NCBI GenBank assembly: GCA_044229845.1
Contig: JBGASG010000009.1
Span: 32,001-96,000 of the forward strand
Length of the DNA: 64,000 bases
Reading direction: 5' to 3'
Origin: Candidatus Obscuribacteraceae bacterium
GTDB lineage: Bacteria; Cyanobacteriota; Vampirovibrionia; Obscuribacterales; Obscuribacteraceae
In this document: piece by piece, positions 40,729-63,805 of the stretch
Layout: every line of letters starts with the position of its first letter
Position numbering within the stretch: the stretch's first letter is position 1
The notes under the pieces: generated by a model
The model's database searches: none
Told to the model about the DNA's origin: nothing
The model's input: the letters and a program-made list of their open reading frames with translations, nothing else
Translations under genes and position numbers: made by a program

Positions 40729-43700
40729 TTACTCCTCAATAGGTGCCAGCAGATATTTCAGATCGCGCTCTGTAAAGTGATTGGTCAGGGCACCAGTAGT
40801 AGTGCCCTTGTCATAAATGCCATCGGCAATCAGGCGTTTCTCTTCCTGGCGCTTAAGCATCTTTTCTTCGACAGTACCGGTGGTGATTAACCGATAGACG
40901 AACACCGGCTTATTCTGTCCGATGCGATGAGCGCGGTCGGTTGCCTGTTCTTCGACCGCCGGATTCCACCAGGGATCGTAGTGGATGACGGTATCGGCAG
41001 CAGTCAAGTTAAGACCTGTGCCACCGGCTTTGAGGCTGATCAAGAAAACGGGCGCTTTGCCGGCTTGAAACTGTTTCACTGGTGTTTTGCGGTCGGCAGT
41101 GCTGCCTCGCAGTTCCAGATATTTGATCTCCCTTGTTATCAGCTCCTCGGCAATCAAGTCGAGCATGCTGGTGAACTGAGAAAAGACGAGTACTCGTCGC
41201 CCTTCATCAACCAGTTGGGTGAGCATCTCCATCAGAACGGATAACTTTGCAGATTCGCCGACAGCTCGCGCTTCTTCGAGCTTTAACAGCCGCGGATCAC
41301 AGCACACCTGACGCAGCCGCATGAGTGCTTTCAGGATGACAATCTGACTGCGATTGATGCCTTTCTCTTCGACAACTTCGAGGACCCGTTTGTGCATGGC
41401 CAGTCGCACGGTTTCATACAGATCGCGCTGTCCGCCCTCCAGGGTAATGTTGCGGTGGATAACCGTCTTTGTGGGCAATTCTTCGCCGACTTCTGATTTG
41501 GTGCGGCGCAACAGGAACGGACGAATGCGAGCGGCGAGAAACGCCCGCATGTACGGGTCATTGAATTTTTCGATCGGCGTGCGAAAGACTCTGGTGAAGA
41601 TTTCGTGTGTGCTCAACAGCCCAGGCATCAGAAATGCGAATTGCGACCAGAGCTCGCCCAGATGATTCTGAACCGGAGTGCCGGTCATGCAGATGCGATG
41701 ATTCGCTTTCAGGCGCCGGCAGACGTCGGCAACTTGTGTCTGCCTGTTTTTGATCATCTGCGCTTCGTCCAGAATCACCATATGCCACTCGCGCAAAGTG
41801 AGCAGTGATGCATCGCGTTGCAATAATGGATAAGAGGTGAGAACAATATCTACGTCGTCGAGTTTGCTCTGGCGAGTAAATCGATCGTAATCTCGCAAAC
41901 ACACAACTCGCAGGTGCGGCACCATGCGTTGGGCTTCCTCAATCCAGTTGGGCAAAACACTGGTCGGGCAAACAACCAGGCAGGGGCGCTGCAGATGGTT
42001 GCTCTCATACTCCATCTGGATGTGCGCCAGTGCTTCGACAGTCTTGCCCAGCCCCATGTCGTCTGCAAGTATCCCGCCGATGTTATGCGAAGCGATAAAT
42101 TGCAGCCAGGCGACACCTTGTTTCTGGTAATCGCGAAGGGTGACGCCGAACTCATTCGGTGCGGCATGTGTTGGCCAATCGCTTCCTGCCTTCAACAATG
42201 AAGCGGCCAGAGCACGCAGGCGGTCACCGCCCTGGAAGGCGATCGGTTGTTCAGCTCCGAGCAACTGCACCAGTTGTCCGGCGCTAATCGGCATGCGTCC
42301 TTGGCGATTTACAGAACTTTCATCGAAAACTTCGATCAAAGTTTTGATCAGCGATTTGACGCGTGGAAACGGCAAAGAAAGTTTGGCGCCATCAGCCATG
42401 GTGACATAGAATCTGCCGCCCTGATTCATCGCCTCCAGAAAATTGTCGTCGATGACATCCATCGGTTCAAATCCGGCGCGGGCGTCGGACATATTATACG
42501 GAATGCTGCGCACCGCCTGCATAAGCAGCGGCAGCAACGAAACTTTTTCACCCCGGACATTGATGCCCAGGTCGACGCTGAACCATCCTTCTTCCTCGAC
42601 AATATCTCCTTGCCAGTCGTCATCATCTGGCATAACGACACGATCGTGAAAGGACTTGTCATAAATAATGTCCCAACCAAGCTTTTCGAGCCGCGGAATT
42701 TCCAGGGCAACAAAATCAGTCAGTTGACGCAACTGCGGCAGTATCAAGCAGAGCCCGTCATTTACGCGCGGGAAGTTGGCCATGGGCAGCTGCAATTCTT
42801 CGGTGAGCATCGAACTGAGCTCTCGCTCTGCTTTCAGGTTGCGGCGGTAAACGACGGTGCGCGAGGCACCGTTGATGGTGACATGGTTGCCGCTGTCTGT
42901 GGGATTGCAGCGCTTGTTGCCGTACTTCACCCAGTGAAAGGCGTAAGCTGCATCTTTCTGCACGCCGTTGTCGAATTTTGTGAGAAACAATACCGGCGTC
43001 GGCACCGCTTCTCTATGTTCGATGACGACCTGTTCTGACGGCAGCGGAATTTCCAGATCGGGCAATCGCTTTTGCAACAAATCGCGGGTGTATTTGGCTT
43101 GTTCTACATCCAGGCGCGGTCCAAACAAGATAGGTTCAACTAGATCTGCAGGGAAAGGCAATGTCAATCGCCCGGCGCAGCCGGTTTTTTCATCCACATA
43201 CCAGGGGCTGGGCGCCAGCAAGACTTGCGCTTCGTGCGTGGTGACGGTGGTGCGCTGGCGACCTTGCTCGTCGACTGCCCACACCAGTTCGCCCGGGCGG
43301 GCGTCACCCAGTGTGAGCGGCAACCCGTCTTTGGTGCGCCAGAAACAGCGCCCGGTCTTAATGACCGAGTTCAGCAAGAGGTCGATTAGTTCGGGTTCAG
43401 CTGTTTCAAATGAATAGTCCAGCCAGTATCCGGAGCGCATGCTGCCCAGAAGTGCGCCAATCATGCGGTCGGCGGCATCGAGAAAGCCGGCGCGACCGGT
43501 GGTCAAATCGTAGCGTTCTTCGCGTCCATATCCGCCGGCTTTCAGCTTGCTGGCGGCGATGGTTTCCAGTCTTAGATACGGTTTTTCGGCGGAGCCGGTG
43601 GTCACCAGATAGAGCAAAGTCTTGCTGTCTTTGAGCTTCTCTTTGCGGGTTACCGTCTCGTTGATCTTACAGAGGTCGGAAACCCATCCATCTATAAGAG

Positions 43701-44160
43701 GATGCACTTTGGCGGGTTGCTCTTGATCCGGAGGCGCGATTTCGCTGGGGGCAATTTCCTCGATGTCATCTTCGTCTTCGCCGGTGCGCTCGCGCAGCAC
43801 GTGATACAGCAGTGCTGCGCCGTGTTTGCAGGTGGTGCCGACCGGGCATTCGCAGCGGCAGTCGACGATGGAATTGGGGCGCCCGCCAGGCTTAATTTGC
43901 ACATAGGTGTCGTACTTGGTCGTGCCCTGCACGAGCCCGGATATGGCGCTCCAGTCGTCATTTATCGCGTATTCGAGAACTCTGAAGCCACGCGCGTAAT
44001 CAAAACCACGCTTCGCTGAGGCGACGCCGAAAAAATCTTCAATCTGCCAATCGGCGAAGGGGGAGCACTTCCGACACTGGCAACGACCATCCGGACACTC
44101 CAGATTGCGGGAGCGATTCTTCGGGGAATGGCTATTTCTTGGAGGTTTTATCTTTGCCAT
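40729..44160 (-). CDS. SWIM zinc finger SNF2-family helicase/ATPase
   Basis: CECPVGTTCKH, LADDMGLGKT, DEAQ, TGTP, FSQF and QATDRAHRIGQ motifs. Confidence 0.95.
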   Translation of the reverse strand: MAKIKPPRNSHSPKNRSRNLECPDGRCQCRKCSPFADWQIEDFFGVASAKRGFDYARGFRVLEYAINDDWSAISGLVQGTTKYDTYVQIKPGGRPNSIVDCRCECPVGTTCKHGAALLYHVLRERTGEDEDDIEEIAPSEIAPPDQEQPAKVHPLIDGWVSDLCKINETVTRKEKLKDSKTLLYLVTTGSAEKPYLRLETIAASKLKAGGYGREERYDLTTGRAGFLDAADRMIGALLGSMRSGYWLDYSFETAEPELIDLLLNSVIKTGRCFWRTKDGLPLTLGDARPGELVWAVDEQGRQRTTVTTHEAQVLLAPSPWYVDEKTGCAGRLTLPFPADLVEPILFGPRLDVEQAKYTRDLLQKRLPDLEIPLPSEQVVIEHREAVPTPVLFLTKFDNGVQKDAAYAFHWVKYGNKRCNPTDSGNHVTINGASRTVVYRRNLKAERELSSMLTEELQLPMANFPRVNDGLCLILPQLRQLTDFVALEIPRLEKLGWDIIYDKSFHDRVVMPDDDDWQGDIVEEEGWFSVDLGINVRGEKVSLLPLLMQAVRSIPYNMSDARAGFEPMDVIDDNFLEAMNQGGRFYVTMADGAKLSLPFPRVKSLIKTLIEVFDESSVNRQGRMPISAGQLVQLLGAEQPIAFQGGDRLRALAASLLKAGSDWPTHAAPNEFGVTLRDYQKQGVAWLQFIASHNIGGILADDMGLGKTVEALAHIQMEYESNHLQRPCLVVCPTSVLPNWIEEAQRMVPHLRVVCLRDYDRFTRQSKLDDVDIVLTSYPLLQRDASLLTLREWHMVILDEAQMIKNRQTQVADVCRRLKANHRICMTGTPVQNHLGELWSQFAFLMPGLLSTHEIFTRVFRTPIEKFNDPYMRAFLAARIRPFLLRRTKSEVGEELPTKTVIHRNITLEGGQRDLYETVRLAMHKRVLEVVEEKGINRSQIVILKALMRLRQVCCDPRLLKLEEARAVGESAKLSVLMEMLTQLVDEGRRVLVFSQFTSMLDLIAEELITREIKYLELRGSTADRKTPVKQFQAGKAPVFLISLKAGGTGLNLTAADTVIHYDPWWNPAVEEQATDRAHRIGQNKPVFVYRLITTGTVEEKMLKRQEEKRLIADGIYDKGTTTGALTNHFTERDLKYLLAPIEE

Positions 44161-44274
44161 GGGCGATACACAGCGGGGCTGGTTGTAGATTGTACCGTCG
44201 ACATGCTGCTAAGTGCCAAGAAACGAAACTTATACTTGACTTGCCATCAGCCCAACCTCCGTGCTACTTTTCGC

Positions 44275-44370
44275 ATGTCAGAGAAAAAACGCGTGGAGTC
44301 GCGCCTGTCAGTGATCGTTGGATTTAATCATCATCACCACCATCACCTGGTCCTCAACGGAGCGGACTGA
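44275..44370 (+). CDS. hisL: Histidine operon leader peptide (start ATG 44275 or GTG 44311)
   Basis: Six consecutive His codons at 44329-44346 (..VIVGFNHHHHHHLVLNGAD*), directly upstream of hisG. Confidence 0.88.
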   Translation: MSEKKRVESRLSVIVGFNHHHHHHLVLNGAD

Positions 44371-44435
44371 CAGACAGCCACGTATTCATTTTCTTGCTAA
44401 CTGTCTTCAAGCCCGCCCATAAAGCGGGTCTTTTT
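44360..44435 (+). promoter_or_regulatory. Transcription attenuator (antiterminator and terminator)
   Basis: Terminator GCCCGC-CCATAAA-GCGGGT-CTTTTT at 44411-44435. GAGCGGACTGACAGACAG can pair imperfectly with CTGTCTTCAAGCCCGC as an antiterminator. Confidence 0.8.
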
Positions 44436-44457
44436 GTGTTTCCACAGGAATTTATCC

Positions 44458-45387
44458 ATGTCTAGCAATCAGAAATTGACGAATTCGCCTTCCGCACAAG
44501 AGCAGGCATCAGCCGACAACGGCGCCGCGGCGCTGCGACTGACCATTCCCACCGGACGCATTCAGGAGAAAGTGCTCGGGTTGCTGGATGCAATCGGCGT
44601 CAAAATGGCCAAGGACGGCAGATCTTACAAGCCGACGTGTTCTGAGAACGGCATTGAAATAAAGATGCTGAAAGCTCAGAACATCCCCAATCTGGTGGCG
44701 CTCGGACGACATGATTGCGGGTTTTCCGGCTACGACTGGATCACTGAGCAGCGCGCCGATGTGGTCGAACTTCTCGACCTGGAATTCGACCCCGTGCGCA
44801 TAGTTGCTGCTGTGCCCGAATATCTGGCGGAGAACGACCTGTATAAAACGATCGATCGCCAACTGGTTGTGGCCTCGGAATATCGGCAGCTTTCCACCGA
44901 TTTCATCGCTCGCAATAAACTGAACGCCGTGTTCTTGCAGACTTTCGGTGCCACCGAAGCGTTGCCGCCGGAAGATGCGGATATCATCGTCGACAATACC
45001 GCCACCGGTACCACGCTGCGTCACAACCGCCTGGTAGAAATCGAAGTGTTGATGCGGTCGACCACCAGGTTCATTTGCAATCGCGAGGCTTACGAGAACA
45101 AAGAAAAACGCCGCAAGCTCGATGAGCTGACGATGCTCATGCAGGCTTCTTTGCGCGCGCGCGACAAGGTCTTGCTGGAAATGAACGTCGCTCGTGAAGA
45201 CTTCGAGCGTCTGGTGGGAGACTTGCCCTGTATGCGGGCACCGACAATTTCCGAACTGTACAACGGTGACGGCTACGCCGTCAAAATCGCCGTTTCGTCC
45301 AGAGATGTTCCGACTCTGATACCAAAACTGGTGGCACTGGGGGCGCGGGACATTCTCGAATACAAACTGCAGAAGATTGTGATTTAA
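44458..45387 (+). CDS. hisG: ATP phosphoribosyltransferase, long form
   Basis: IP.GRI, D.GFSG.DW..E, GATEA.PP..AD.IVD...TG.TL..N.L motifs and C-terminal regulatory domain ending GARDIL. Confidence 0.93.
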   Translation: MSSNQKLTNSPSAQEQASADNGAAALRLTIPTGRIQEKVLGLLDAIGVKMAKDGRSYKPTCSENGIEIKMLKAQNIPNLVALGRHDCGFSGYDWITEQRADVVELLDLEFDPVRIVAAVPEYLAENDLYKTIDRQLVVASEYRQLSTDFIARNKLNAVFLQTFGATEALPPEDADIIVDNTATGTTLRHNRLVEIEVLMRSTTRFICNREAYENKEKRRKLDELTMLMQASLRARDKVLLEMNVAREDFERLVGDLPCMRAPTISELYNGDGYAVKIAVSSRDVPTLIPKLVALGARDILEYKLQKIVI

Positions 45388-45408
45388 CTGAAGGCACCCG
45401 GGAAGTCG

Positions 45409-46047
45409 ATGAATATTTCGCCCGCGATACCATCCAGAGCACAAGCTGCCGCTTGCGAAGTCGACCTGGTCGATGTAGGCGGTGGCAACATCGGCAGCGT
45501 GCGCCGCTGCCTGCACAGGCTGGGTATCACCTATCGCGATGTCGGTGCCGATAATCTACCGGGCGGCTCGCGTCCATTGATCTTGCCTGGGGTCGGTGCA
45601 TTCGGCACCGTTATGGACAGCTTGCGAAGAAACGGTTTGGACGAAAGCATAAAAAATTTGGTGGCCAAGGGTACACCACTGCTGGGTGTTTGCGTCGGAA
45701 TGCAGGTTCTGTTCGACAGCAGCGAAGAAGCACCGGGCGTGCCGGGACTGTCGCTGGTGCCAGGGAAAGTGGTGCGCTTCGTGGCTGACAAAGTGCCGCA
45801 GATCGGGTGGAATCATATCGATGCGAAGCAGTCAGGCTGGGAAGGCGGCTATGTCTATTTTGTCAACTCTTTCTATGCACAACCCGAAAACGATAACGTG
45901 GTGCTATACCAGGCGCAGTATGGCGACACGGAATTCTGTGCCGCGCTGCGGACTGGAAACATAACCGCCTTTCAGTTTCATCCTGAAAAAAGTAGTGCCT
46001 TTGGTGCCAGTTTGCTTGCGAGGTGGATAGCCAGTGTCACTCTGTAA
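45409..46047 (+). CDS. hisH: IGP synthase glutaminase subunit
   Basis: [24 protein letters not shown] and QFHPEKS motifs. Confidence 0.95.
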
Positions 46048-46798
46048 GCGCATCATTCCCTGCCTTGACGTAGCCAACGGCATGACCGTGAAAGGTGTGA
46101 AGTTCACCAATCTGCGAACCATCGGCGACCCCGTCGAACTGGGCTTGATCTACGAAGAACAAGGCGCCGACGAACTGACGTTTCTCGACATATCTGCATC
46201 GTCCGAAGAGCGAGCGACCGTCGTCGAGCTGGTCGAGCGCGTCGCCGACAATCTCTCGATTCCATTTACAGTCGGCGGCGGCATCACCACAGCCGCTGAT
46301 GCGAAAAAACTTTTGAGCAGTGGTGCCGACAAGGTTTCGATCAACACTGCGGCGGTGCAGCGGCCGGAACTGATCGGCGAGATTTCCTCTGCCTGGGGCT
46401 CGCAGTGCTGCGTGGTGGCAATCGATGCACGGGCTGCGGCGTCTCCCGGCACGTGGGAAGTACTGATCAAGGGCGGTCGCGTGGCGACCGGACGTGATGC
46501 TTTCCAGTGGGCTCAGGAATGTGTTGAGCGCGGCGCCGGCGAGATACTTCTGACGTCGTGGGATCGTGACGGCACCTTATCTGGTTTCGACCTGGAGATG
46601 GTGCGCACCTTCGCGCGCAATCTGCCGGTGCCGGTGATTGCGTCGGGCGGTGCTCGCGACCCGGAGAGTTTCGTCGACGTGTTCAAGGAAGCCAGCGCTG
46701 ATGCCGCCCTGGCAGCAAGTATTTTTCACGATGGCACCTACACCATCGCTCAGGTCAAAGAGCGTTTGCGCGCAGCAGGAGTACCAGCAAGGCTATGA
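46034..46798 (+). CDS. hisF: IGP synthase cyclase subunit
   Basis: [45 protein letters not shown] and ASGG motifs. Confidence 0.97.
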
Positions 46799-48036
46799 TT
46801 GTTCCCAGCATCGATATTATCGGCGGAAAAGCGGTGCAACTTCGCCAGGGCAAGGAGTTTGTCCTGGAGAGCGAGCGCGATCCGGTAGACCTGGCCCGTG
46901 AATTCAATCGATACGGTGAAGTGGCGGTGATCGATCTTGATTCCGCCATGGGCAAAGGCAACAATCGCGAATTGATTGAGCGCATTTGCAAAGTTGCCGA
47001 TGTCCGAGTCGGTGGCGGCATCCGCGATGTAGAAACGGGACGCGCATTGCTGCGTGCCGGGGCCAAGTCACTGATTGTCGGAACCAAAGCTACTCCCGAG
47101 TTTCTCAGCCAGTTTCCTGCAGACCGCATTATTGTGGCGCTCGATCATGTCAACGAAGAAGTTGTCGATAAGGGATGGACCAATTCTACCGGTGAATCGA
47201 TTTGGGATCGGGCCGGCAGGCTGGAACCATATTGCAGTGGGTTTCTGGTCACGTTTGTGGAAGCAGAGGGTGGATTGGGTGGACTGCCCGCCTCAGCAGC
47301 AGCAAGCCTCCTGGAGAAACTGAAAAGGCATGTCACCGTTGCCGGTGGCATCGCTTCCACGACGGAAGTAGCCGATATCTCGGCGCTGGGTGCAGACGTG
47401 CAGGTGGGCATGGCCCTATATAAAGGATTAGTCGATCCGGTCGAGGCGGTCGTGCAGAGTGTCAACTTCGACACCAACGGCACCGGTGTCGTGCCCACGG
47501 TCGTTCAGGACATGAACGGACAGGTTTTGATGCTGGCATATAGCTCACCGGAGTCGTTGCGGCGAGCACTTAAAGAGGGCAAGGGCATCTATTACAGCCG
47601 TTCTCGCCAGGAGATATGGGAGAAGGGATTGACTTCGGGTGCGACGCAGCAGCTGGTTTCTTGCCGGGTAGATTGCGATCGCGACAGTCTCCTGTTCCGC
47701 ATCGAGCAAACCGAGGGCGCCTGCCACCGGGGTTCCTACAGCTGCTTCGGGCAAGCAACGGCTGCCAGGCAGTTCTCCGTCGGACAGTTGTTCAGCATTC
47801 TGCAGCAGCGGAAGCAGGAGATGCCGGAAGGTTCTTATTCGGCAACGCTATTTAAAGACCGGCGTAAGTTGCTGAAGAAACTGATGGAAGAAGCGCACGA
47901 GGTCTGCACCTTCGAGTCTACCGAAAATTTGCGCTGGGAGATTGCCGATTTGATCTACTTCGCCAGTTTGCTGGCAGTGGATGAAGGTGTGTCGTGGGCT
48001 GACATCGAATGCGAACTGGGAGGTCGTGCCAAGTGA
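46795..48036 (+). CDS. hisAIE: Trifunctional HisA-HisI-HisE fusion
   Basis: HisA (PSID..GGKAVQL.QG, IDLD.A, VGGGIR), HisI (YSRSR..W.KG.TSG, DCDRD, ACH.G..SCF) and HisE (GSY, KK..EEA.E, EIADL.Y) in one 413-aa ORF. Confidence 0.92.
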
Positions 48037-49307
48037 CGCAAATGAGCAGATCTGTATTCGAACGAGTCGAGGGCGAGTCGGATGTCTCCGATATCGCCAA
48101 GCGAGTGGCTCAGATTTCCGTCTCTGCCATCAAGCAAATGCCGGTGCTGGCCGCCAGGGTCGGCGGGTGCGTATCGCTGGGGCAGGGCATCCCGTCTTTG
48201 AATACGCCGGAGTTTATTCGCCGCGCCGTCATCGAAGAGCTGCAAAATCCGTCGACAGCGATCGGCAAGTATTCTATTCAGCCAGGTTTGCCGGAGTTGA
48301 AACAAGAAATCGCCCGCGACTTGAAGCGAACTCGCGGTGTGGCGAATGTGGACCACGAGAAGGAGATATTTGTCAGTTGTGGTGGCATGGAGGCGCTCGC
48401 CGCCGGCATCGCTACCATTGTGGAACGTGACGATGAGGTGATTTTGCCGTCGCCCACCTACGCTTCCCATATTGAACAAGTGCTCTTTGCTGAAGGCGTA
48501 CCGCGATTCGTACCTCTGGTTGAAGATCAGGGATGGAAACTGGACATTGAGGCAATCAGAAAAGCAGTCTCGAAGAAAACCAAAGCGATCATTCTCTGCA
48601 ATCCGGTCAACCCGACAGGCACCGTATTCAGTGAGAGCGAATTGAACGAAGTCGCCAAGATCGTGTTGGAGAACGATTTGTTTCTTATCCTCGATGAAGC
48701 CTACGATTTCCTGGTCTACGACGGTCTGCCGTTCTACAGTTTGATGTCGCGCGTCGATCTGAAGGAGAATGTCATCGCTGTCTGCAGTTTCTCCAAGCGG
48801 TATTGCATGACCGGCTGGCGAGTCGGTTTCATGTACGCTCCAGAGCGCATTATTCGTCAGGTCTTGAAAGTGCATGATGCGTTTGCCATCTGTGCTCCGA
48901 CGATATCGCAGTTCGCTGCTCTGGCGGCGCTACGTGCCACCAATGGCGTCGACGGCGAAGGAGACCGCAGCGTTCAGCAACTTGTCGATGCGCTCGGGCG
49001 CAGACGAGACCTGGTGTGTTCGCGACTGGAACGGCTGACCGAAATCTTTTCCTATGTCAAACCGGTGGGCGGATACTACGTCTTCCCCCGGTTCAATGCG
49101 GCGGTGAAGGCAGCTTCCTCCGATTTAGAGTCTTCCATTGATTTCACGCTGCGCATATTGAATGAAGCAAAAGTGATCACCATTCCGGGGAGTGCATTTG
49201 GACCCACCGGCGAGAATCATATACGAATGTCTTTCGGTGCCGACGAAGCCGAGCTGACTGAAGCCTTTGACCGACTCGATACTTACTTTGCAGGGAGAAA
49301 ATCATGA
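48033..49307 (+). CDS. PLP-dependent class I/II aminotransferase, AspC-like, in the position of hisC
   Basis: SLGQGIP, NPVNPTG, DEAY and SFSKRYCMTGWRVG motifs; GTG start overlaps the hisAIE stop. Confidence 0.9.
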   Translation: MTQMSRSVFERVEGESDVSDIAKRVAQISVSAIKQMPVLAARVGGCVSLGQGIPSLNTPEFIRRAVIEELQNPSTAIGKYSIQPGLPELKQEIARDLKRTRGVANVDHEKEIFVSCGGMEALAAGIATIVERDDEVILPSPTYASHIEQVLFAEGVPRFVPLVEDQGWKLDIEAIRKAVSKKTKAIILCNPVNPTGTVFSESELNEVAKIVLENDLFLILDEAYDFLVYDGLPFYSLMSRVDLKENVIAVCSFSKRYCMTGWRVGFMYAPERIIRQVLKVHDAFAICAPTISQFAALAALRATNGVDGEGDRSVQQLVDALGRRRDLVCSRLERLTEIFSYVKPVGGYYVFPRFNAAVKAASSDLESSIDFTLRILNEAKVITIPGSAFGPTGENHIRMSFGADEAELTEAFDRLDTYFAGRKS

Positions 49308-50626
49308 TTCGCACGTTCCAACTGAATTCCATGTCGAAACAGGACCGGGATAAGGTCATGAAACGCGCACATGAGGATATCGACAGCGTCAAGCCGAAGG
49401 TCGAGCAGATTATTCAAGCCGTGCGCAGCGAAGGCGATGCGGCGCTGGTGCGTTTCACGAAAGAATGGGATGACCCTGAGTACACCGCAGACCGCCTGGT
49501 GGTGACCGAAGCCGATATTGACGAAGCCTATAAGAACACCAGCAAAGAAACGCTGGAACGCATCCGCGAACAAATCTCCCTGTCGAAGCGATTTCATGAA
49601 CTGCAGCGACAGCAAGTCCCGGAATGGGAAAACGAGATGGAGAATGGCATCGTTGTCGGCGAGAAGTGGACTCCACTGTCCGATGTCGGGCTGTATGTGC
49701 CTGGTGGAAAAAATCCGTTTCCGACTGTGCAGCAAATTCTGGCGGTGGCAGCCAAGGCTGCGGGCTGCCCGCGCATAGTTTCGTGCATCTCGCCGCGAGG
49801 CAAGGGCTATGAGGTGTTGATTGCGGCGCGGGAGTGCGGCGTCACGGAGATATATCGGGTTGGTGGAGCACAAGCGATTGCCGCTCTTGCCTATGGAACA
49901 GAGACTATCAAGCCGGTATTGCTGATTGCCGGACCGGGAAATCCGTTTGTCACCGCTGCCAAGATTCTTTGTCAGTCGAAGGTGTCCATCGATATGCCGG
50001 CTGGACCAAGTGAGGCGATTGTGCTCGCCGATGGCACCACGCCGGAAGGACTGGATTTGCCGACCAAGGCGACTTATTGTGCGGCCGACTTGCTGGCGCG
50101 TGCGGAGCACGGACCGGATTCCGCCGGTGTGCTGCTCACTGATTCCGCGGAGCTTGCCGAGCTGACCGAGAAGGAAATCGAGAAGCAGTACAAAACTCTG
50201 TCGAGGCAAGACTATATTAAGAAGGCACTGGAGACCTACAGCGCAATTATTGTGGTGCCCTCCATGAAGGAGGCGGTTGACTTCACCAACGAGTACGCGC
50301 CTGAACACCTCGAAATACTAACGGAGGATCCCGATGCCACATTGAAGGGCATTGAGAATGCCGGGTCGGCTTTCCTTGGCTATTACAATCCGGTTGCTAC
50401 CGGTGACTACGCTACCGGCATCAACCACGTGCTGCCGTCGTGCGGATGGGCGAGGCAGACATCTCCGGTTGGTGTGTGGACCTTCATGAAGCGTGTGCAA
50501 TACTCAACCGTCAGCAAGAGTGGACTGGACAGGCTGCGACCGATTGTTCAGACAATTGCCACCGTGGAAGGATTGGATGCGCACCGTCGCAGCGTTGAAG
50601 TGCGCTTTGAGAAACAGAATGTCTGA
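49304..50626 (+). CDS. hisD: Histidinol dehydrogenase, divergent
   Basis: GLYVPGG, GGAQAIAALAYG, GPGN, IDMPAGPSE, APEHL, GDY..G.NHVLP and EGL.AH motifs. Confidence 0.9.
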   Translation: MIRTFQLNSMSKQDRDKVMKRAHEDIDSVKPKVEQIIQAVRSEGDAALVRFTKEWDDPEYTADRLVVTEADIDEAYKNTSKETLERIREQISLSKRFHELQRQQVPEWENEMENGIVVGEKWTPLSDVGLYVPGGKNPFPTVQQILAVAAKAAGCPRIVSCISPRGKGYEVLIAARECGVTEIYRVGGAQAIAALAYGTETIKPVLLIAGPGNPFVTAAKILCQSKVSIDMPAGPSEAIVLADGTTPEGLDLPTKATYCAADLLARAEHGPDSAGVLLTDSAELAELTEKEIEKQYKTLSRQDYIKKALETYSAIIVVPSMKEAVDFTNEYAPEHLEILTEDPDATLKGIENAGSAFLGYYNPVATGDYATGINHVLPSCGWARQTSPVGVWTFMKRVQYSTVSKSGLDRLRPIVQTIATVEGLDAHRRSVEVRFEKQNV

Positions 50627-51923
50627 GACTGATGTGGATGATGCGGCTCAGCTGCGTTTGATCGATATTCAGAAACTGCAGTTTGCCGATCGTGTCGGCG
50701 CGGAGCAGGCTTTGCTGGCATTCTTGAAAAAGAGTGAGGATGCCGCAATCACTAGGGTTGAGTTGCGTCCAAAACCGGAATCGCTCAATTCGATCAATGG
50801 CTTTGTCACCTTCGGCGAGAGCGAGCGTTATTTCTTCAAGATGCACGTCGAGGAAAACGAGCGTCTCAGTGAATATTACAACGCAAAGACGCTGGCTGAT
50901 GCCGGGTATCCCGTGGTGACGGCGAAGCAAATCTCGCATCGCCCTGGCAAGCAACTTGTGCTTTACGAGATCATTGAGTTCGCTACTTTGTTTGATGTGG
51001 CGAAGGAGGCGGAGGACGAGTTGCTGCAGGCGCGTGACGTGTCGAACTTTGATGCCATCGTTGCCGCACAAAATCAGTTGGACGCGATTACAAGCTCGAT
51101 ATACGCAAAGACTCTCGCGCAGACTCCGGAAACCGAAGATCTGCCCGCGCCGATTCATCAATTGTTTTCACATCGTCTGGCAGAAGATGGACGGCTGCGA
51201 TTGTTTTATCGTGGTAAGACCATGAAGACAGAATCTGGCACCCCGATCGCTTTTGATGAACTGGCAAACATGCATTGGGTGATCAATGGGGTTCGCCACG
51301 GAGAGACTTTGAACGAGATCATCGAGCGGGCGCAAATTCAGCTGGCACCATCGGCGGGACCATCGGTGATCGGACACGGCGATGCACACAATGGAAATGT
51401 ATTCTTCGATCCCGTCGAAAATAGTTTGTTGATGTTTGATCCAGCGTTCGCAGGCCGACATCACCCGCTGTTGGATCTCACCAAACCGCTCTTCCATAAC
51501 GTCTTCGCTCGCTGGATGTATTACCCGTCCGAGGTTGACAAAGAATTTAGCCTCGCTATGGTGATGGACAAGGGTGTAATCGAGATTACTCACAATTTCG
51601 AGATCTCAGGACTGCGCAAGGCATTCCTGGAATCAAAGCTGAAATACGTCCTGCGTCCGACGCTCAAGCTGCTGCACGAGCAGGGGATGCTGCGCGGCGA
51701 CTGGCAAACTTATTTGAGATCATCGCTGTTTTGCTGTCCGTTTTTGACGGTCAACCATTTCGCTCCTTATAAGGCTGACGGAACTCTGTCCGAGCGCTAC
51801 TCCTTCTGGGTGCGCATGCTCGGGTTGTCCATGTCGGTGGAGTTGGGTTCGGGATACCGTGAGGGTAGCAACGGCATGACCGACCTGCTTGACCGTATCC
51901 TCGATTTTCCGTTTGCTGGATAA
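50619..51923 (+). CDS. APH/choline-kinase-fold phosphotransferase-like protein
   Basis: YFFKMH lysine, Brenner-type HGDAHNGN and MFDP motifs; ATG overlaps the end of hisD by 8 nt. Confidence 0.75.
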   Translation: MSETDVDDAAQLRLIDIQKLQFADRVGAEQALLAFLKKSEDAAITRVELRPKPESLNSINGFVTFGESERYFFKMHVEENERLSEYYNAKTLADAGYPVVTAKQISHRPGKQLVLYEIIEFATLFDVAKEAEDELLQARDVSNFDAIVAAQNQLDAITSSIYAKTLAQTPETEDLPAPIHQLFSHRLAEDGRLRLFYRGKTMKTESGTPIAFDELANMHWVINGVRHGETLNEIIERAQIQLAPSAGPSVIGHGDAHNGNVFFDPVENSLLMFDPAFAGRHHPLLDLTKPLFHNVFARWMYYPSEVDKEFSLAMVMDKGVIEITHNFEISGLRKAFLESKLKYVLRPTLKLLHEQGMLRGDWQTYLRSSLFCCPFLTVNHFAPYKADGTLSERYSFWVRMLGLSMSVELGSGYREGSNGMTDLLDRILDFPFAG

Positions 51924-52012
51924 GGTTTGTCCCTGCATGTCTGGACAACCGGCAGTCGCTGGTCGAAAATGTGCGTCTGACGCATTAGGCGTTGTCAAGC
52001 TTTGATTGCCAA

Positions 52013-53290
52013 ATGGAACATCGCCCAACCCTAAATCTGCTATTGCTCGATGTGGACGGAGTCCTTGTGGAACCGCTCGCTTATCGCCAGTGCATCGTCA
52101 AGACGCTGGAGATTTTAGGCAGGCAAGTGGGGCTCCGCAATCTCGAAGATGTGATGCCGACGGAATCCGACATCGCGCATATGGAAGCCTGTGGCATTCA
52201 TGATGTCTGGGATATGACCAATATCCTGTTCAGCGCGATTTTGGAGCGGATCACATTCCATCTGACCGGCACTGAGGCTCACGAGAAGAGCTTGAGCGAC
52301 CGCCTGGAGGGACTGGAGACTATCAACCAGCGCCTGACTGTTTTTCAAAAAACGCCGCTGGTTATCCAGAAACCCGGCTACACAGAAATAGCCACCGAGT
52401 TAATGAAGCGATTGCCGGCACACCCGCCTGATATCGCGTTGCAGATGGTCGAGGCGCAGATTCGCAAACAGTTTGCTGCCAGAGCCTTGATTTATTCCCT
52501 GTTGGAAATTCACAAAGCTTTCCTGATGGGAACGCGTTCTGTGTATGAGAGCTATGGCACAGGGCTTTTTCAAAACATTCTCCTTGGCAAGGATGAGTTT
52601 GAGAAGACCTACAATCTGCACAGCGAGTACAACGAGGAGCCACTGCTTCGCGTTGCTGACAAAGCGCTGATTTCTCAGCAGTCGGTTGCCATGCTGCAAC
52701 TTTTGAATGAACGCCCTGATTGCCGCGCGGCGATCTATACGGCACGTCCGAGTTTGCCCCCACCGTCGGAAGAAGCGACCGAAGGCTTCTCTCCGGAAGC
52801 GGAGATTGCGCTGGATCTGTGTGGTATGAAGGGCTTTCCCCTGGTGGGGATGGGCATGATGCAATGGCTTGCTGCCAGAACTAATTGCCGGACGGAAGAC
52901 CTGACGAAACCAAATACCACGCAAGCGCTGGCGGCATTGGCGGCGGCGATCTATCAGCAAAACGATATCGATTTATTGGAGGCGGCGTACAGAGTCGACC
53001 GCGAGGGCGAAAATCCGCACGAGCACCTGCTTGCGAATCTGGCTGAGACACCGATTCGGATCTATGTATTCGAGGACACAGTGTCAGGGATCAATCCGAT
53101 GCTGAAGGTTGCCCAGAAACTGCAGGGCGATGGATTTTCTGTGAGTGTTACCCCGATGGGTATCGCACAGCAGAAGAGCAAGCACCAGGCACTATCCATG
53201 GTGACCAAGCATGTGTTTGGCAATGTGGATTTTGCATTGCGGTTTGCCTCTCACGATATGAATACTGCAGCGAGCAGCGGGGCTCTCTAG
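52013..53290 (+). CDS. HAD-superfamily hydrolase with a large cap insertion
   Basis: LLDVDGVL (motif I), YTARP (II), KP (III) and FEDTVSGI (IV). Confidence 0.8.
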
Positions 53291-54027
53291 GATAGGGACT
53301 GCCCGGTTTTGGGCTTGGGCTTAGGCATTTCGTCCCAAGTGCGACCTTCGAGCAGTCGACCGGCGGCTTTCTTATTGCGACCGCCCCACTGTTTGAAGAA
53401 GAAAGCGACGTTTTGTTCTTTGCACTGATCGCGAATGGTGGTTACCCAATCCTTATCTATGGGGCGGGAACGATGGCCGGATTCGCCACCGACAATCACC
53501 CAGTCGATGCCGGTGAGATCGAGGTTGTCTCCGAGCGGACCAATTAATGGCTCGATGGAGAGAAACTTGGTGTGAGCCCGCGTACGTCGCAAATGATCGA
53601 TGCGGTATTTGTAGTCGGCGTTTTCTACGCTTACCCCCTGCCAGATATGGGGGCACCAGGGCAGGATGGGATCAATCTCTTCGAGACGTTCCGCGCGTTT
53701 CGTGAGGATTTGGAACGTGTGCCATTTTGCTTGCTTCATCACCTGGAAGATTTTCAGAATAAATTCTTGCGGCACATCCTTGTGGTAGAGGTCGCTCATC
53801 GAGTTCACGAAGATGCGCTTGGGCTTCCGCCAGGAAAGTGGTAGCTCCAGGCGATTGGGCCACATTTTTAGATCGAATCCTTGTTCATAAGGATGGTCTG
53901 GAACTCCACGAAAGCGTTCCGCGAAAGTCTCCGCATAGCAGTTTGCGCAACCCGGACTGATCTTGTGGCACCCGGTGATTGGGTTCCACGTGGCGTCGGT
54001 CCATTCAATGCTGGAGTTATCACTCAT
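53287..54027 (-). CDS. DUF5131 (phage Gp37/Gp68) family protein
   Basis: [50 protein letters not shown] and FFFKQWGG motifs. Confidence 0.92.
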
Positions 54028-54163
54028 GCCCGATGTTCTCCTCGGAATACTTTAGCGTGCTAGAGGCAAGGTTGCCAGGGAATGTGTTAAAACTCGAGCA
54101 TACTCACGTGTACACGCTCGCATTTTTCTCGCTGGTGCCTCGCGCCGTGCGCCCTGATGAGTC

Positions 54164-54189
54164 GAAAGAAATTCCGCGAAAATTCTTGC
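54164..54189. repeat. 26-bp palindrome, copy 3
   Basis: GAAAGAAATTC-CGCG-AAAATTCTTGC, 8/11 paired. Confidence 0.75.
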
Positions 54190-54419
54190 CAGGCACCGCG
54201 GGCGGTACGAAGGTTCTCAAGATTTCCAGTGAGCCTGGGCCCATAGTGCCCTAGCTCATCGAGGCGTTTCAGCGGAATTCTCCGTGCAAAAAATCACGCA
54301 ATCTCTTGCGGAGGTAAAGTCCTCGTGCATTTTTTCTTTGGCTTGCGATTGAACTTTTTGCCACCATCCGACGTTTAAAAAGAAGTACTTCACCCCACTC
54401 CGAAATGGAGGATTTGCAT

Positions 54420-55019
54420 ATGGCAATTAAACAAATCAGGGAGCATTTCAAAAACCTTGGTCCGCTAGAGATATTTTGCACGCGGGATTTGCTGCAATAC
54501 GGAAAGCGTACGGCAGTTGATACCGCCACCTTCAGACTAGTGAAGCAAAAGGAGATAAAGAGACTCGCTAGTGGAGTGTTTATAAAATACAACGATTCTG
54601 GACTACGCCCGTCGGATGAGGAGATCGCGATGGCAAAAGCGAAAGCATTTGATCGTCAGATAGTGGAGATTAGCCGAGCTCTAGCATTGGAGCTGGGAGT
54701 ACCTATCAATGAAAATGCTGATGCGTATTTTGCTACGAATGGGCGGACAACGCAGTTCATGATTGAAAAAAAAAGACTCGTTCAATTCGTTGGGGTCGCA
54801 CCAAGAAAGGTGGAACTCGGAAGAACCAGAGTTGGAACGGAATTGAGGACGTTCTGGAAGATTGGGAAACGCTCTCTCCCCTCCGTAAGAGTTCGGCTCC
54901 TCGCAAATAACTGGTCTTGGCGCGATGCGAACGAATGCGCGGGGAGGATCAGGCAATTGCCTCAGTGGCTCTCTGAGATGCTGGGTCTTCCTCGCGCCGC
55001 GCTGCACGGCGCGGCGTAG
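54420..55019 (+). CDS. DUF6088-like (AbiEi-like wHTH) protein
   Basis: GGAGG RBS; IF..RDLL..G.R.AVD....RLV....I.RLA.GVF and C-terminal LPQWL motifs; visibly more AT-rich than its flanks. Confidence 0.8.
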   Translation: MAIKQIREHFKNLGPLEIFCTRDLLQYGKRTAVDTATFRLVKQKEIKRLASGVFIKYNDSGLRPSDEEIAMAKAKAFDRQIVEISRALALELGVPINENADAYFATNGRTTQFMIEKKRLVQFVGVAPRKVELGRTRVGTELRTFWKIGKRSLPSVRVRLLANNWSWRDANECAGRIRQLPQWLSEMLGLPRAALHGAA

Positions 55020-61272: not shown

Positions 61273-61335
61273 ACACCCGGGGGTTGTCTGTAGTAGGATC
61301 AACCTGTCACGGAATGTGGGTTTGAGGGCTTGCGG

Positions 61336-62559
61336 ATGAAGCGCTTTCTGGCATGGAGTTTGGTCGCGCTGGCGTGTCTGTGCGACATAACCGGCACCGC
61401 TGCCTTTGCTCAAGAAACCGCTGCTGGAACGTTTCCTGTTGATCTGTTCAGAGAAACAGCCAAAGGCAGGTCCGACAAGAATGTCCTGGTTTCGCCCTTT
61501 AGCGCCGCTACCGCCCTGACCATGGCCTATGCAGGCTCGGAAGGCGGTACGCGGGAAGCGATGGCGCGCGTGCTGGGACTGCCCGCCGAAGACGAGAAAG
61601 CGTACGCGGCGCAGAAAGCACTTCTTGATAGCCTCAGCAAGCCTGGCGACGCAACCATTCTGGAGATTGCTAATGCTCTGTTCGGCAACCAGAGTGTGAA
61701 ATTCAAAGAGGCATTCCTGTCCGTTAATAGAAAGTACTTTGACTGTGAAGTCAACTCGCTCGACTTCTCCGCAACCGCTTCGCTCGCGAAGATTAACTCC
61801 TGGGTTTCAGAGAAGACGCACGCGAAAATTCCCACCATTATCCAGAGTGTTGATCCTAAGAGCGTTCTCTTTCTTATCAATGCTGTCTACTTCAAAGGAA
61901 CATGGGCACAAAAATTCGAGAAGGCGCTGACCAAGCAGGCACCATTCAAGATGGCTGACGGTTCAGTCAAGAACGTGTCCATGATGAGTACGGTCCGCAA
62001 AGATTTTCGGTACCTGCAGACCGATGATTTTCAGGCGGTGGCACTACCTTATTCGGACGGGCGCTTGAGTCTGTATGTGATCCTGCCGATCAATATAAAG
62101 CCACTCAATATCTTCGAAGCTGAGATGACGCAGGAGAAATGGAACGAGTGGCTTGGGAAGTTTGCGAATAATCCCGGCACGCTCGCGATGCCACGCTTCA
62201 AAATCGATGATGACATGCTGCTCAACGATCCCCTATCTCAAATGGGTATGGGCGTAGCATTCCAGCCGAAGAGCGCGAATTTTGTCGAGATGGTGGAGCA
62301 AGGCGACGATCAAGAAATCTTCATTAGCAAAGTGATTCAGAAGACTTTCATGGACGTGACTGAAGACGGCACGGAGGCTGCTGCGACCACAGTTGTCGCC
62401 ATGCCGCGCGGTCTTTCCATTCCTGATAAAAAGCGGCCCTTCTATATGACGGTCGATCATCCATTCATCGTGGCGATCGTGGATGAAACCACCAGAGCTA
62501 CGTTGTTCATAGGACATGTGGCAGATCCGGTGGGCGGGTCTGCTCCGGGAACCAAGTAA
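61336..62559 (+). CDS. Secreted serpin
   Basis: Signal peptide; NVLVSPFS, INSWV..KT, NAVYFKG.W, EDGTEAAA hinge and DHPF motifs. Confidence 0.95.
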   Translation: MKRFLAWSLVALACLCDITGTAAFAQETAAGTFPVDLFRETAKGRSDKNVLVSPFSAATALTMAYAGSEGGTREAMARVLGLPAEDEKAYAAQKALLDSLSKPGDATILEIANALFGNQSVKFKEAFLSVNRKYFDCEVNSLDFSATASLAKINSWVSEKTHAKIPTIIQSVDPKSVLFLINAVYFKGTWAQKFEKALTKQAPFKMADGSVKNVSMMSTVRKDFRYLQTDDFQAVALPYSDGRLSLYVILPINIKPLNIFEAEMTQEKWNEWLGKFANNPGTLAMPRFKIDDDMLLNDPLSQMGMGVAFQPKSANFVEMVEQGDDQEIFISKVIQKTFMDVTEDGTEAAATTVVAMPRGLSIPDKKRPFYMTVDHPFIVAIVDETTRATLFIGHVADPVGGSAPGTK

Positions 62560-62599: not shown

Positions 62600-63805
62600 A
62601 TGAAAGGCATGCTGGCGCTGTGTCTTACATTCGTCCTGGGCGCGGGTGCGATGCCGCCAGCCTGTGCGGACGAGGAGGGACCGGTGATGTCTGGTTTTCC
62701 GTTACAGTTGTTTCAAGAGGTTGCGAAGGAGCATCCGGACGCCAACGTGCTTGTGTCGCCGTTCAGTGTAAAGACTGCTTTGACGATGACCTACAATGGC
62801 GCCGCCGGCGATACCAGGAAGGACATGGGAAAAGTGCTCGGATTCGCTGAACTGGGATCGGTAGAGGCGGTCGCGGCCCGTGAACAGTTAGTGTTGAATA
62901 GCCTCAGGCAGCCAGGACTGAGCACCCAGCTCGAGATTGCCAACGCGCTCTTCGGCGAGAAGTCTATCGCATTCAAGCCGGACTTCGTCTCACTGAACAA
63001 GCAATACTTCGGAGCCGAAATCAACTCGCTTGATTTCAAGTCACCCGATGCGGTGAACACGATTAACCAGTGGGTATCCGACAAGACACACGAAAAGATT
63101 CCAACCATTCTCGAGCAGGTCAGTGAAGACGCGATTCTCTATTTGATCAACGCTATCTACTTCAAGGGGGCATGGCAGCACAAGTTCGACAAGGCGCTCA
63201 CCAAACCGGGCGACTTCCATCTGCCGAACGGGTCCACGAAGAAGGTGCCCATGATGCATCTCAGTCGTGACGATTTTCGCTACTACGAAACTGGCGACTT
63301 CAAAATCATCAGTCTCCCTTATGCAGATGGACGCCTCAGCATGTATGTGATACTGCCTGGCAAAGCAACATCGTTGTCCGCATTCGAAGCCAGTCTCACA
63401 CCGCAGATGTGGGTCGACCTGGTTAATCGCGTACACAAAAGCGATGGACGTCTTGTGCTGCCGCGCTTCAAGCTGGAAGACAAAATGACGCTCAAAGAAG
63501 TTCTCTGTCGAATGGGGTTGGAGGTAGCCTTCGATCAAAACAAAGCCGATTTCAGCGAGATGTCGGATTTGAAACAGCGTGTCTATATCAGCCAGGTCTT
63601 CCACAAGACTTTTATGGACGTGAACGAGGAGGGCACCGAAGCCGCCGCTGCCACTGCGGTGGAGATGGCTCCTACGATGGCCATGGCAAATCCGCCACCG
63701 CCCTTTGAAATGATCGTCGACAGACCATTTGTTATCGCGCTGCGGGACAACAAGACGGACAGTCTGCTGTTTATGGGGCACGTAGTGGAGCCGCCCGGAC
63801 AGTAA
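62600..63805 (+). CDS. Secreted serpin
   Basis: Signal peptide; NVLVSPFS, NAIYFKGAW, EEGTEAAAAT hinge and DRPF motifs. Confidence 0.95.
   Translation: MKGMLALCLTFVLGAGAMPPACADEEGPVMSGFPLQLFQEVAKEHPDANVLVSPFSVKTALTMTYNGAAGDTRKDMGKVLGFAELGSVEAVAAREQLVLNSLRQPGLSTQLEIANALFGEKSIAFKPDFVSLNKQYFGAEINSLDFKSPDAVNTINQWVSDKTHEKIPTILEQVSEDAILYLINAIYFKGAWQHKFDKALTKPGDFHLPNGSTKKVPMMHLSRDDFRYYETGDFKIISLPYADGRLSMYVILPGKATSLSAFEASLTPQMWVDLVNRVHKSDGRLVLPRFKLEDKMTLKEVLCRMGLEVAFDQNKADFSEMSDLKQRVYISQVFHKTFMDVNEEGTEAAAATAVEMAPTMAMANPPPPFEMIVDRPFVIALRDNKTDSLLFMGHVVEPPGQ

Follow-up and report, generated by a model that had tools for sequence, protein, structure and literature searches.

The histidine biosynthesis operon of a Candidatus Obscuribacteraceae bacterium (contig JBGASG010000009.1, positions 32,001–96,000; this stretch of 64,000 nucleotides is termed the window) encodes, directly after the histidinol dehydrogenase gene hisD, a protein with the APH/choline-kinase fold. 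Together with a variant HisD partner, here called HisD*, this kinase very probably replaces the step of histidine synthesis catalyzed by HisB, the imidazole-glycerol phosphate (IGP) dehydratase (IGPD), as judged from sequence comparisons across genomes. This exchange of HisB for a kinase and a modified HisD is judged real and widespread and is apparently undescribed, and the end of the pathway is probably re-ordered as well. Histidine is generally taught to be made by a single conserved route, which is why IGP dehydratase has become a herbicide and antimicrobial target; the enzyme, the sixth of the pathway and supposedly universal, uses no ATP.

The kinase and its predicted functional residues are located as follows.

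50619..51923 (+): APH/choline-kinase-fold protein of 434 amino acids, the proposed HisB replacement and main finding, on the evidence of Pfam, model, and fold searches and of its mutual exclusion with IGPD.
50838..50840 (+): codon of Lys74, the predicted ATP-binding lysine (strand 69–76, FFK), its role assigned from the fold.
51375..51398 (+): catalytic loop His253–Asn260, including Asp255 (HxDxxxxN), with His, Asp, His, and Asn invariant in 62 homologs.
51438..51440 (+): codon of Asp274, a predicted Mg-binding aspartate.

An initial annotation, made from the DNA letters alone, had drawn attention to an 8-nt overlap between the kinase and hisD, to the HxDxxxxN motif, and to a second Asp and a putative ATP-binding Lys. 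All are borne out: the kinase ATG lies at 50619 and hisD ends at 50626, and the residues occur at 253–260, Asp274, and Lys74 and are conserved in homologs. The HxDxxxxN pattern is by itself weak, being present in 597 of 20000 shuffles of the kinase protein. Counts of the motifs across the kinase loci were set aside as circular, since the loci had been picked out by these motifs. Pfam APH (PF01636) matches residues 229–291 (E 2.3e-7; 31.3 bits against a cut-off of 23.2), and His253, Asp255, His257, Asn260, Arg186, Arg192, and Lys289 are invariant in 62 distant homologs selected with phmmer (some only 22% identical to the first row; positions converted to those of the window kinase). Lys74 and Asp274 are invariant in 43 close homologs and at least 90% conserved in the 62 distant ones. 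Structure prediction and a fold search, both suggested in the initial annotation, gave a confident AlphaFold model (pLDDT 90.2, pTM 0.89) whose listed matches are all protein-kinase-like and nearly all small-molecule kinases, the best being methylthioribose kinase (Z 16.9, root-mean-square deviation (rmsd) 6.6 over 322 residues). With its bilobed fold, conserved ATP-binding Lys, HxDxxxxN loop, and Mg-binding Asp, the protein bears the features of a small-molecule kinase and is predicted to transfer the ATP phosphoryl group to a hydroxyl. It shares the fold, Lys, loop, and second Asp with the APH, choline, and methylthioribose kinases (PF01636), but differs from them in its 9–16% identity, its own invariant motifs, and its housekeeping biosynthetic context.

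Two further fold matches are of mechanistic interest. The second best, LxmK/LxmY, is a class V lanthipeptide dehydratase (PDB 9dk1; Z 16.7, rmsd 4.4 over 301 residues) in which a kinase and its partner reportedly dehydrate by phosphorylation–elimination. Its substrate is, however, a peptide, and no lanthipeptide lyase or precursor-peptide gene was seen among the conserved neighbors of 80 kinase loci, scanned as open reading frames (ORFs) of at least 90 amino acids with one member per cluster. The 25-hydroxysteroid kinase of Sterolibacterium denitrificans (PDB 9fsg) has the same fold (Z 13.9, 9% identity) and phosphorylates a hydroxyl for elimination of the phosphate by a separate lyase (PMC8449060). 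It differs in that it acts on a tertiary steroid alcohol and is catabolic, and the separate lyase is not known.

Existing resources do not name the family. The kinase protein gave no match to PF00475 or to NCBIfam HisB, and the IGPD domain with its Mn-binding His/Glu motifs is not present; a kinase-profile search of solved-structure sequences returned 0 matches at E 1, no family in an NCBIfam scan covers the kinase, and in the ESM Atlas its relatives occur only in unnamed or APH-labeled clusters. The family is nonetheless large: of 8000 candidates that were scored, 1202 belong to it (represented by 405 proteins at 50% identity), and they are named just "hypothetical" or "phosphotransferase"; source names of the nearest relatives indicate Obscuribacterales. 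A role as an antibiotic-resistance APH was rejected, resistance context being absent in 160 loci. Three distant homologs (P0232, P0235, P0250) carry a long unannotated N-terminal region of ~300–600 amino acids.

The replacement is indicated by the mutual exclusion of the kinase and hisB. Among 151 genomes of the host class, 4 encode the kinase, 90 encode IGPD, and none encodes both; in the order of a Symploca carrier (121 genomes) the counts are 9, 109, and 0, with 3 genomes having neither, and in an Anaerolineae order (81 genomes) they are 35, 36, and 0, with 10 having neither. A blind test of 8 IGPD-negative genomes found the kinase in 5. The 11 genomes of the host family that have neither kinase nor IGPD are also devoid of HisD (0/11). 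Phototrophic cyanobacteria of several families have lost hisB only where the kinase occurs. The initial annotation had held that homologs found mostly in hisB-retaining genomes would speak against its proposal; in the biosynthetic clades the picture is the reverse, with no overlap in the three samples above and hisB in 1 of 60 carriers tested directly, Pseudanabaena lw0831 (60 of the 80 kinase genome loci were tested, the other 20 not being asked by locus). In the genome of the window itself, which is 88% complete, IGPD (PF00475) was not found, whereas 14 of 14 controls were detected; nor was a second hisD or any gene over the HisC (TIGR01141) cut-off.

The operon occupies positions 44434–53290 on a single strand, with overlapping or short junctions, and besides the kinase contains the following features.

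44434..45387 (+): hisG, ATP phosphoribosyltransferase of the long form (ATG 44458 may be the true start); TIGR00070 and TIGR03455 over cut-off.
45409..46047 (+): hisH, IGP synthase glutaminase; TIGR01855 over cut-off.
46034..46798 (+): hisF, IGP synthase cyclase; TIGR00735 over cut-off.
46795..48036 (+): hisA-hisI-hisE fusion (PF00977, PF01502, PF01503), also fused in hisB-bearing relatives.
48009..49307 (+): aminotransferase of class I, aspartate/aromatic type and distinct from HisC (GTG 48033 is the likely start); best NCBIfam matches are aspartate aminotransferase (AspAT)/PatA-like models.
49304..50626 (+): variant histidinol dehydrogenase HisD*; TIGR00069 over cut-off and alignment to solved HisD.
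50099..50101 (+): codon of HisD* Arg266, at the site of the axial Zn-ligand Gln of canonical HisD and HpsN, from alignments.
51992..53290 (+): phosphatase of the HAD family with a large cap (ATG 52013 is the likely start), with a DxD motif and a profile match to the cyanobacterial module HAD.

Three hisB-bearing relatives have the order hisG-[hisC-HAD]-hisB-hisH-hisF-hisA/IE-hisD with a canonical hisD, and the carriers have all four late genes swapped. Identity of these relatives to the window is 56–68% for the early his genes, whereas it is only 34–35% for HisD, which indicates that the entire late half of the pathway was exchanged.

Gene order points in the same direction. The hisD gene lies directly upstream of the kinase in 72 of 80 genome loci, and two of the eight others end at a contig edge; carriers retain hisG, H, F, A, I, and E in the same operon as the kinase, and a comparison of conserved neighbors found no other family that accompanies the module across lineages. 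In distant metagenome operons (L172, L173, and L184; metagenome loci at 33–60% identity to another query), the order hisG-hisD-HAD-kinase-hisH-hisA/F-hisIE places the kinase in the hisB slot. Across 80 metagenome loci, for which hisB status is known for the loci only, hisD is found in 59 and hisB in 1. Kinase–HAD fusions exist in both domain orders and with more than one HAD type, the window type in P0122 and other HADs in P0128, P0134, P0137, P0151, P0184, and P0209. In L172–L175 and L179, a Trp-repressor-like gene precedes the his operon, hisG is short, and a hisA-hisF fusion of ~490 amino acids is present. The kinase module and HisB/IGPD (PF00475) fill one and the same gap in the pathway, several operons even have the kinase where hisB would lie, and the kinase is fused to or lies beside a HAD phosphatase, as in HisNB. 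The folds are unrelated. IGPD is a Mn-dependent 24-mer (PMC10978614); the window protein instead has kinase motifs and a variant HisD partner.

That this HisD is a variant had gone unmentioned in the initial annotation. In HisD and HpsN, Zn is held by Gln, two His, and Asp, and a Glu–His pair is used (PMC11382572, PMC5585171). The window HisD* keeps the catalytic Glu334/His335 and the ligands His269, Asp368, and His427, and the Zn-ligand Gln is replaced by Arg266. The adjoining HisD is without this Gln in 128/128 rows, with Arg in 25 and Glu, together with an Asp-to-Asn change, in 103; the Glu–His pair is present in all 128 (85 + 43 rows; duplicates and close kin included, fragments dropped). 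A quick tree unites Arg-type and Glu-type HisD* (support 97, though long branches call for caution). HisD* also persists where the pair has come apart: in G176, G182, and G675 it is retained away from the kinase, and in the Anaerolineae genome G812, where the adjacent HisD* is deleted, the single full-length HisD found is a stand-alone Arg-type HisD* of the other clade (L263/L267, G812:C5:7781-9064), 75% identical to that of metagenome locus L182.

The native HisD of cyanobacterial carriers has fared differently. In 19 of 20 hisB-less carriers it is missing at least one of six key residues, the losses differing between lineages, whereas in hisB-bearing cyanobacteria it is intact in 27 of 30, counted on best-scoring copies (the remaining three being G621, G628, and G639, whose gene is split). 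That this decay proves a new substrate was considered and rejected in view of G621 and G628, discussed below. In L103–L113, L118, L120, L150, L158–L161, and L165–L167, the native cyanobacterial hisD of hisB-less carriers is still a full-length ORF while losing catalytic and Zn residues; these genes form a gradation of pseudo-enzymes, perhaps retained for a different role.

These observations bear on a drop-in explanation, in which IGP would be dehydrated at the expense of ATP by the kinase without a partner, the variant HisD being a histidinol dehydrogenase that is simply inherited with it. It would account for the exclusion with hisB and for the kinase in the hisB slot; the invariant His76, Glu78, His257, and His293 could serve as bases, and a single-enzyme ATP-dependent dehydratase is known for NAD(P)H hydrates (PMC8449060). 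We nevertheless regard it as decidedly unlikely, as the kinase is never paired with a Gln-type HisD (0/128 rows), HisD* is kept over an available native HisD (19/20), and in G812 another HisD* has been substituted. Distribution and gene order strongly support the core of the initial proposal, in which the kinase takes over from HisB through phosphorylation followed by elimination, but not as a lone drop-in enzyme: since the kinase is accompanied by a variant HisD and usually by a HAD phosphatase and a changed aminotransferase, its substrate may be a dephosphorylated and/or oxidized derivative and not IGP.

Turning to these accompanying enzymes, the window aminotransferase takes the place of the hisC-HAD fusion of hisB-bearing relatives and scores 122 bits with TIGR01141, below the HisC threshold of 277. 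An AspAT-like aminotransferase is also found in 4 of 5 scanned metagenome operons. The aminotransferase of the cyanobacterial module is HisC-like and over the TIGR01141 cut-off (2/2 scanned). In Mycobacterium tuberculosis HisC, Arg337 is one of three phosphate-binding residues (PMC4703992); its equivalent is missing in 10/10 cyanobacterial-module enzymes and kept in 6/6 canonical HisC. The DxD motif of the window HAD is invariant in 10 relatives, and the two main clades have related HADs, the window HAD matching the profile of its cyanobacterial module counterpart with a probability of 95.9. The idea that the HAD is an obligatory part was discarded, as none was found in five Anaerolineae carriers, G190, and G162.

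As the mechanism of the kinase/HisD* module we lean slightly toward a re-ordering of the last four steps. First, the C1 phosphate of IGP would be removed by the window HAD or a general phosphatase, giving imidazole-glycerol. Second, HisD*, with a Zn site without Gln, would bind the 2-hydroxy substrate in the way that HpsN holds its diol, and would oxidize C1 at the expense of 2 NAD+. Third, the kinase would place an ATP phosphate on the C3 hydroxyl adjoining the ring. With C1 an aldehyde or acid, the C2 hydrogen would be acidic and the phosphate would be eliminated, at the kinase or at HisD*, to yield imidazole-pyruvate; the oxidation and phosphorylation could occur in either order. Fourth, an aminotransferase for alpha-keto acids, in the window the AspAT-like enzyme, would convert imidazole-pyruvate to histidine. 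Imidazole-acetol phosphate, histidinol phosphate, and histidinol would be bypassed at a cost of one ATP. The 25-hydroxysteroid kinase supplies a precedent for a kinase with a separate lyase (PMC8449060). For HisD*, the precedent of the same fold is HpsN, the 2,3-dihydroxypropane-1-sulfonate 3-dehydrogenase, a HisD paralog that converts a primary alcohol with a 2-hydroxy group into the acid (PMC11382572), as is proposed here for HisD*. HpsN has the axial Gln and a G-R-Y-A/S-H motif with His126 (PMC11382572), however, and HisD* is without both; the window HisD* scores 290 bits to HisD versus 192 to HpsN. Independence from Mn, two of which are bound per IGPD subunit (PMC10978614), might, speculatively, be a benefit of the kinase route. 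HpsN-like HisD paralogs of Anaerolineae (L114, L116, L117, L119, L121) keep an Asp–Lys pair and have Met at the place of His126, and many Anaerolineae genomes with such a paralog have a UDP-sulfoquinovose-synthase-like gene upstream of hisD at the kinase locus.

Several observations weigh against this account of replacement and re-ordering. Pseudanabaena lw0831 keeps both kinase and hisB and is the only other kinase carrier among 301 well-assembled genomes of the phylum; in L235, hisB adjoins the kinase/HisD* pair; and G813 has the kinase with no HisD found. Most of the genomes are incomplete metagenome-assembled genomes, and related genomes are not independent, so Fisher values for the exclusion overstate it. 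The cyanobacterial-type HAD was not found in 5/5 Anaerolineae carriers, in a scan without a positive control. The two invariant Arg and the Lys of the kinase would suit a phosphorylated substrate such as IGP, and the HisC of the actinobacterial module retains the Arg337 equivalent (5/5). Outside the operon, 4 of 5 host-family carriers encode a protein that scores above the HisC cut-off, and the notion that carriers have no HisC was dropped for this reason. G621 has hisB, no kinase, and a decayed native HisD, its only intact HisD being a HisD*-clade protein with Glu for Gln and Thr for Asp (loci L153:7120-8427 and L154:1557-2768); a HisD*-clade enzyme can thus apparently oxidize histidinol. In G628 the native HisD has decayed beside a second canonical copy, and the decay of native HisD may partly reflect redundancy.

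Some of these points are accommodated if the kinase and HisD* form a two-protein dehydratase in the canonical order of steps. Here the kinase would phosphorylate the C3 hydroxyl of IGP; HisD*, with its opened Zn site and capacity to bind imidazole, would eliminate the phosphate to give imidazole-acetol phosphate and later oxidize histidinol; and the aminotransferase and HAD would act as HisC and HisN, the HAD being a histidinol phosphatase where the re-ordered route makes it an IGP phosphatase. The same kinase/hisB exclusion data apply. The hisG-hisD-HAD-kinase-hisH order (L172, L173, L179, L184) mirrors the hisN/hisB slot, the HAD–kinase fusions parallel the HisNB fusion, and the requirement for HisD*, G621, the intact actinobacterial HisC, and the invariant basic residues are all explained. 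LxmKY is said to follow the same pattern of a kinase with a separate lyase, and so does the 25-hydroxysteroid kinase (PMC8449060). Left unexplained are the switch to AspAT-like aminotransferases, the loss of the Arg337 equivalent in 10/10 cyanobacterial-module enzymes, and the catabolic clusters without hisG and HAD, and on balance we hold this alternative to be rather unlikely.

These catabolic clusters form a sister branch of the family. Kinase homologs of ~32–37% identity are encoded on 106 plasmids, mostly of Sinorhizobium and Rhizobium, and the plasmid kinases form one clade of 15 rows (99), shared with kinases from histidine utilization (hut) clusters. All three plasmid regions that were read encode an ABC importer, HisD*, the kinase, an SDR protein, and a Zn dehydrogenase; HutC and an aminotransferase occur in 2/3 and an FMN hydroxy-acid oxidase in 1/3 (Shinella), and neither hisG nor a HAD was present in the three regions. 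L242 combines all of these components. Clusters of this type (L257–L260) were seen on plasmids of Rhizobium, Sinorhizobium, Shinella, Pantoea, and Klebsiella, often with HutC and the FMN oxidase added. Some kinases stand without a nearby hisD: between the urocanase and histidine ammonia-lyase genes in L206, L208, and L232, and, in the case of catabolic-clade kinases, beside an SDR gene and a class III aminotransferase gene in L223, L229, and L237, with an enolase-superfamily enzyme and an AMP-binding enzyme additionally in L223 and L229.

The S. meliloti 1021 pSymA cluster SMa0387 (hisC3)–SMa0402, which includes hisD2, shares the HisD* and kinase pair with the window operon, its kinase homolog being 31% identical to the window kinase. 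It differs in belonging to the catabolic clade, in having an importer and regulator and no hisG or HAD, and in a host with canonical hisB. Expression of SMa0387–0402 drops ~tenfold in an S. meliloti tolC mutant, alongside hutU, G, and H, and the organism has a canonical his gene set including hisB (PMC2912261); in the parts available of two further papers, the cluster is mentioned solely as regulated genes (PMC12542648, PMC8844928), and the literature searched gave no published function for it. The importer suggests an unphosphorylated substrate, and the FMN oxidase and aminotransferase suggest imidazole-pyruvate as a node. In this clade, the same pair would act on an imported, unphosphorylated imidazole polyol and feed histidine utilization.

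The initial annotation had offered, as an alternative, phosphorylation or salvage of an imidazole compound, and this idea fits the catabolic clade on rhizobial and enterobacterial plasmids, and only that clade. Extended to the whole family, it would have the kinase phosphorylate an imidazole compound that was taken up or had leaked, or produce some other metabolite, and the hisB-less carriers would be auxotrophs or would use an unseen dehydratase. The linkage of the catabolic clade to importers and HutC, the kinases in hut clusters, and seven metagenome loci that show no nearby hisD although each flank spans at least 1.5 kb are in keeping with it. We consider it very unlikely, as carriers keep the early his genes in the kinase operon, several cyanobacterial families lost hisB only in the presence of the kinase, and no other family travels with the module.

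Elsewhere in the window, a DUF5131 gene (phage Gp37/Gp68-like, radical-SAM-type; 53287-54027, minus strand) converges on the operon end with a 4-nt overlap, and two tandem genes (61330-62559 and 62600-63805, plus strand) encode secreted serpin-like proteins, as judged from sequence. A second hisH/hisF-like pair in another part of the genome (G000:C5:38377-39776; 32% and 46% identity) is possibly a glycan amidation pair. A promoter/terminator scan gave counts at chance (5 vs 5.3; 15 vs 10.1, sd 3.3), and Rfam gave 0 matches over 43500-54500.

A literature search that covered few subscription papers and no supplements (among them the GapMind S1 Text on proposed alternate enzymes, which may bear on novelty) found no description of the kinase family or of a replacement for HisB. 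The available part of GapMind 2026 (PMC13759103) names hisN and hisI gaps in histidine synthesis and no alternative dehydratase. Taken together, we judge the balance to be modestly in favor of a second histidine route that relies on a HAD, a modified HisD, and a kinase, does without both a Mn-dependent dehydratase and histidinol, and has displaced hisB repeatedly in at least four phyla, and whose rhizobial sister clade catabolizes an environmental imidazole polyol with the same pair. A kinase-based substitute would close a gap in hundreds of genomes otherwise scored as histidine auxotrophs (at least 416 relatives). If the proposal is true, primary metabolism would gain a small-molecule case of phosphorylation–elimination, a function could be assigned to a HisD subfamily whose members are at present labeled plain histidinol dehydrogenases, and the orphan S. 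meliloti hisD2 cluster would be explained.

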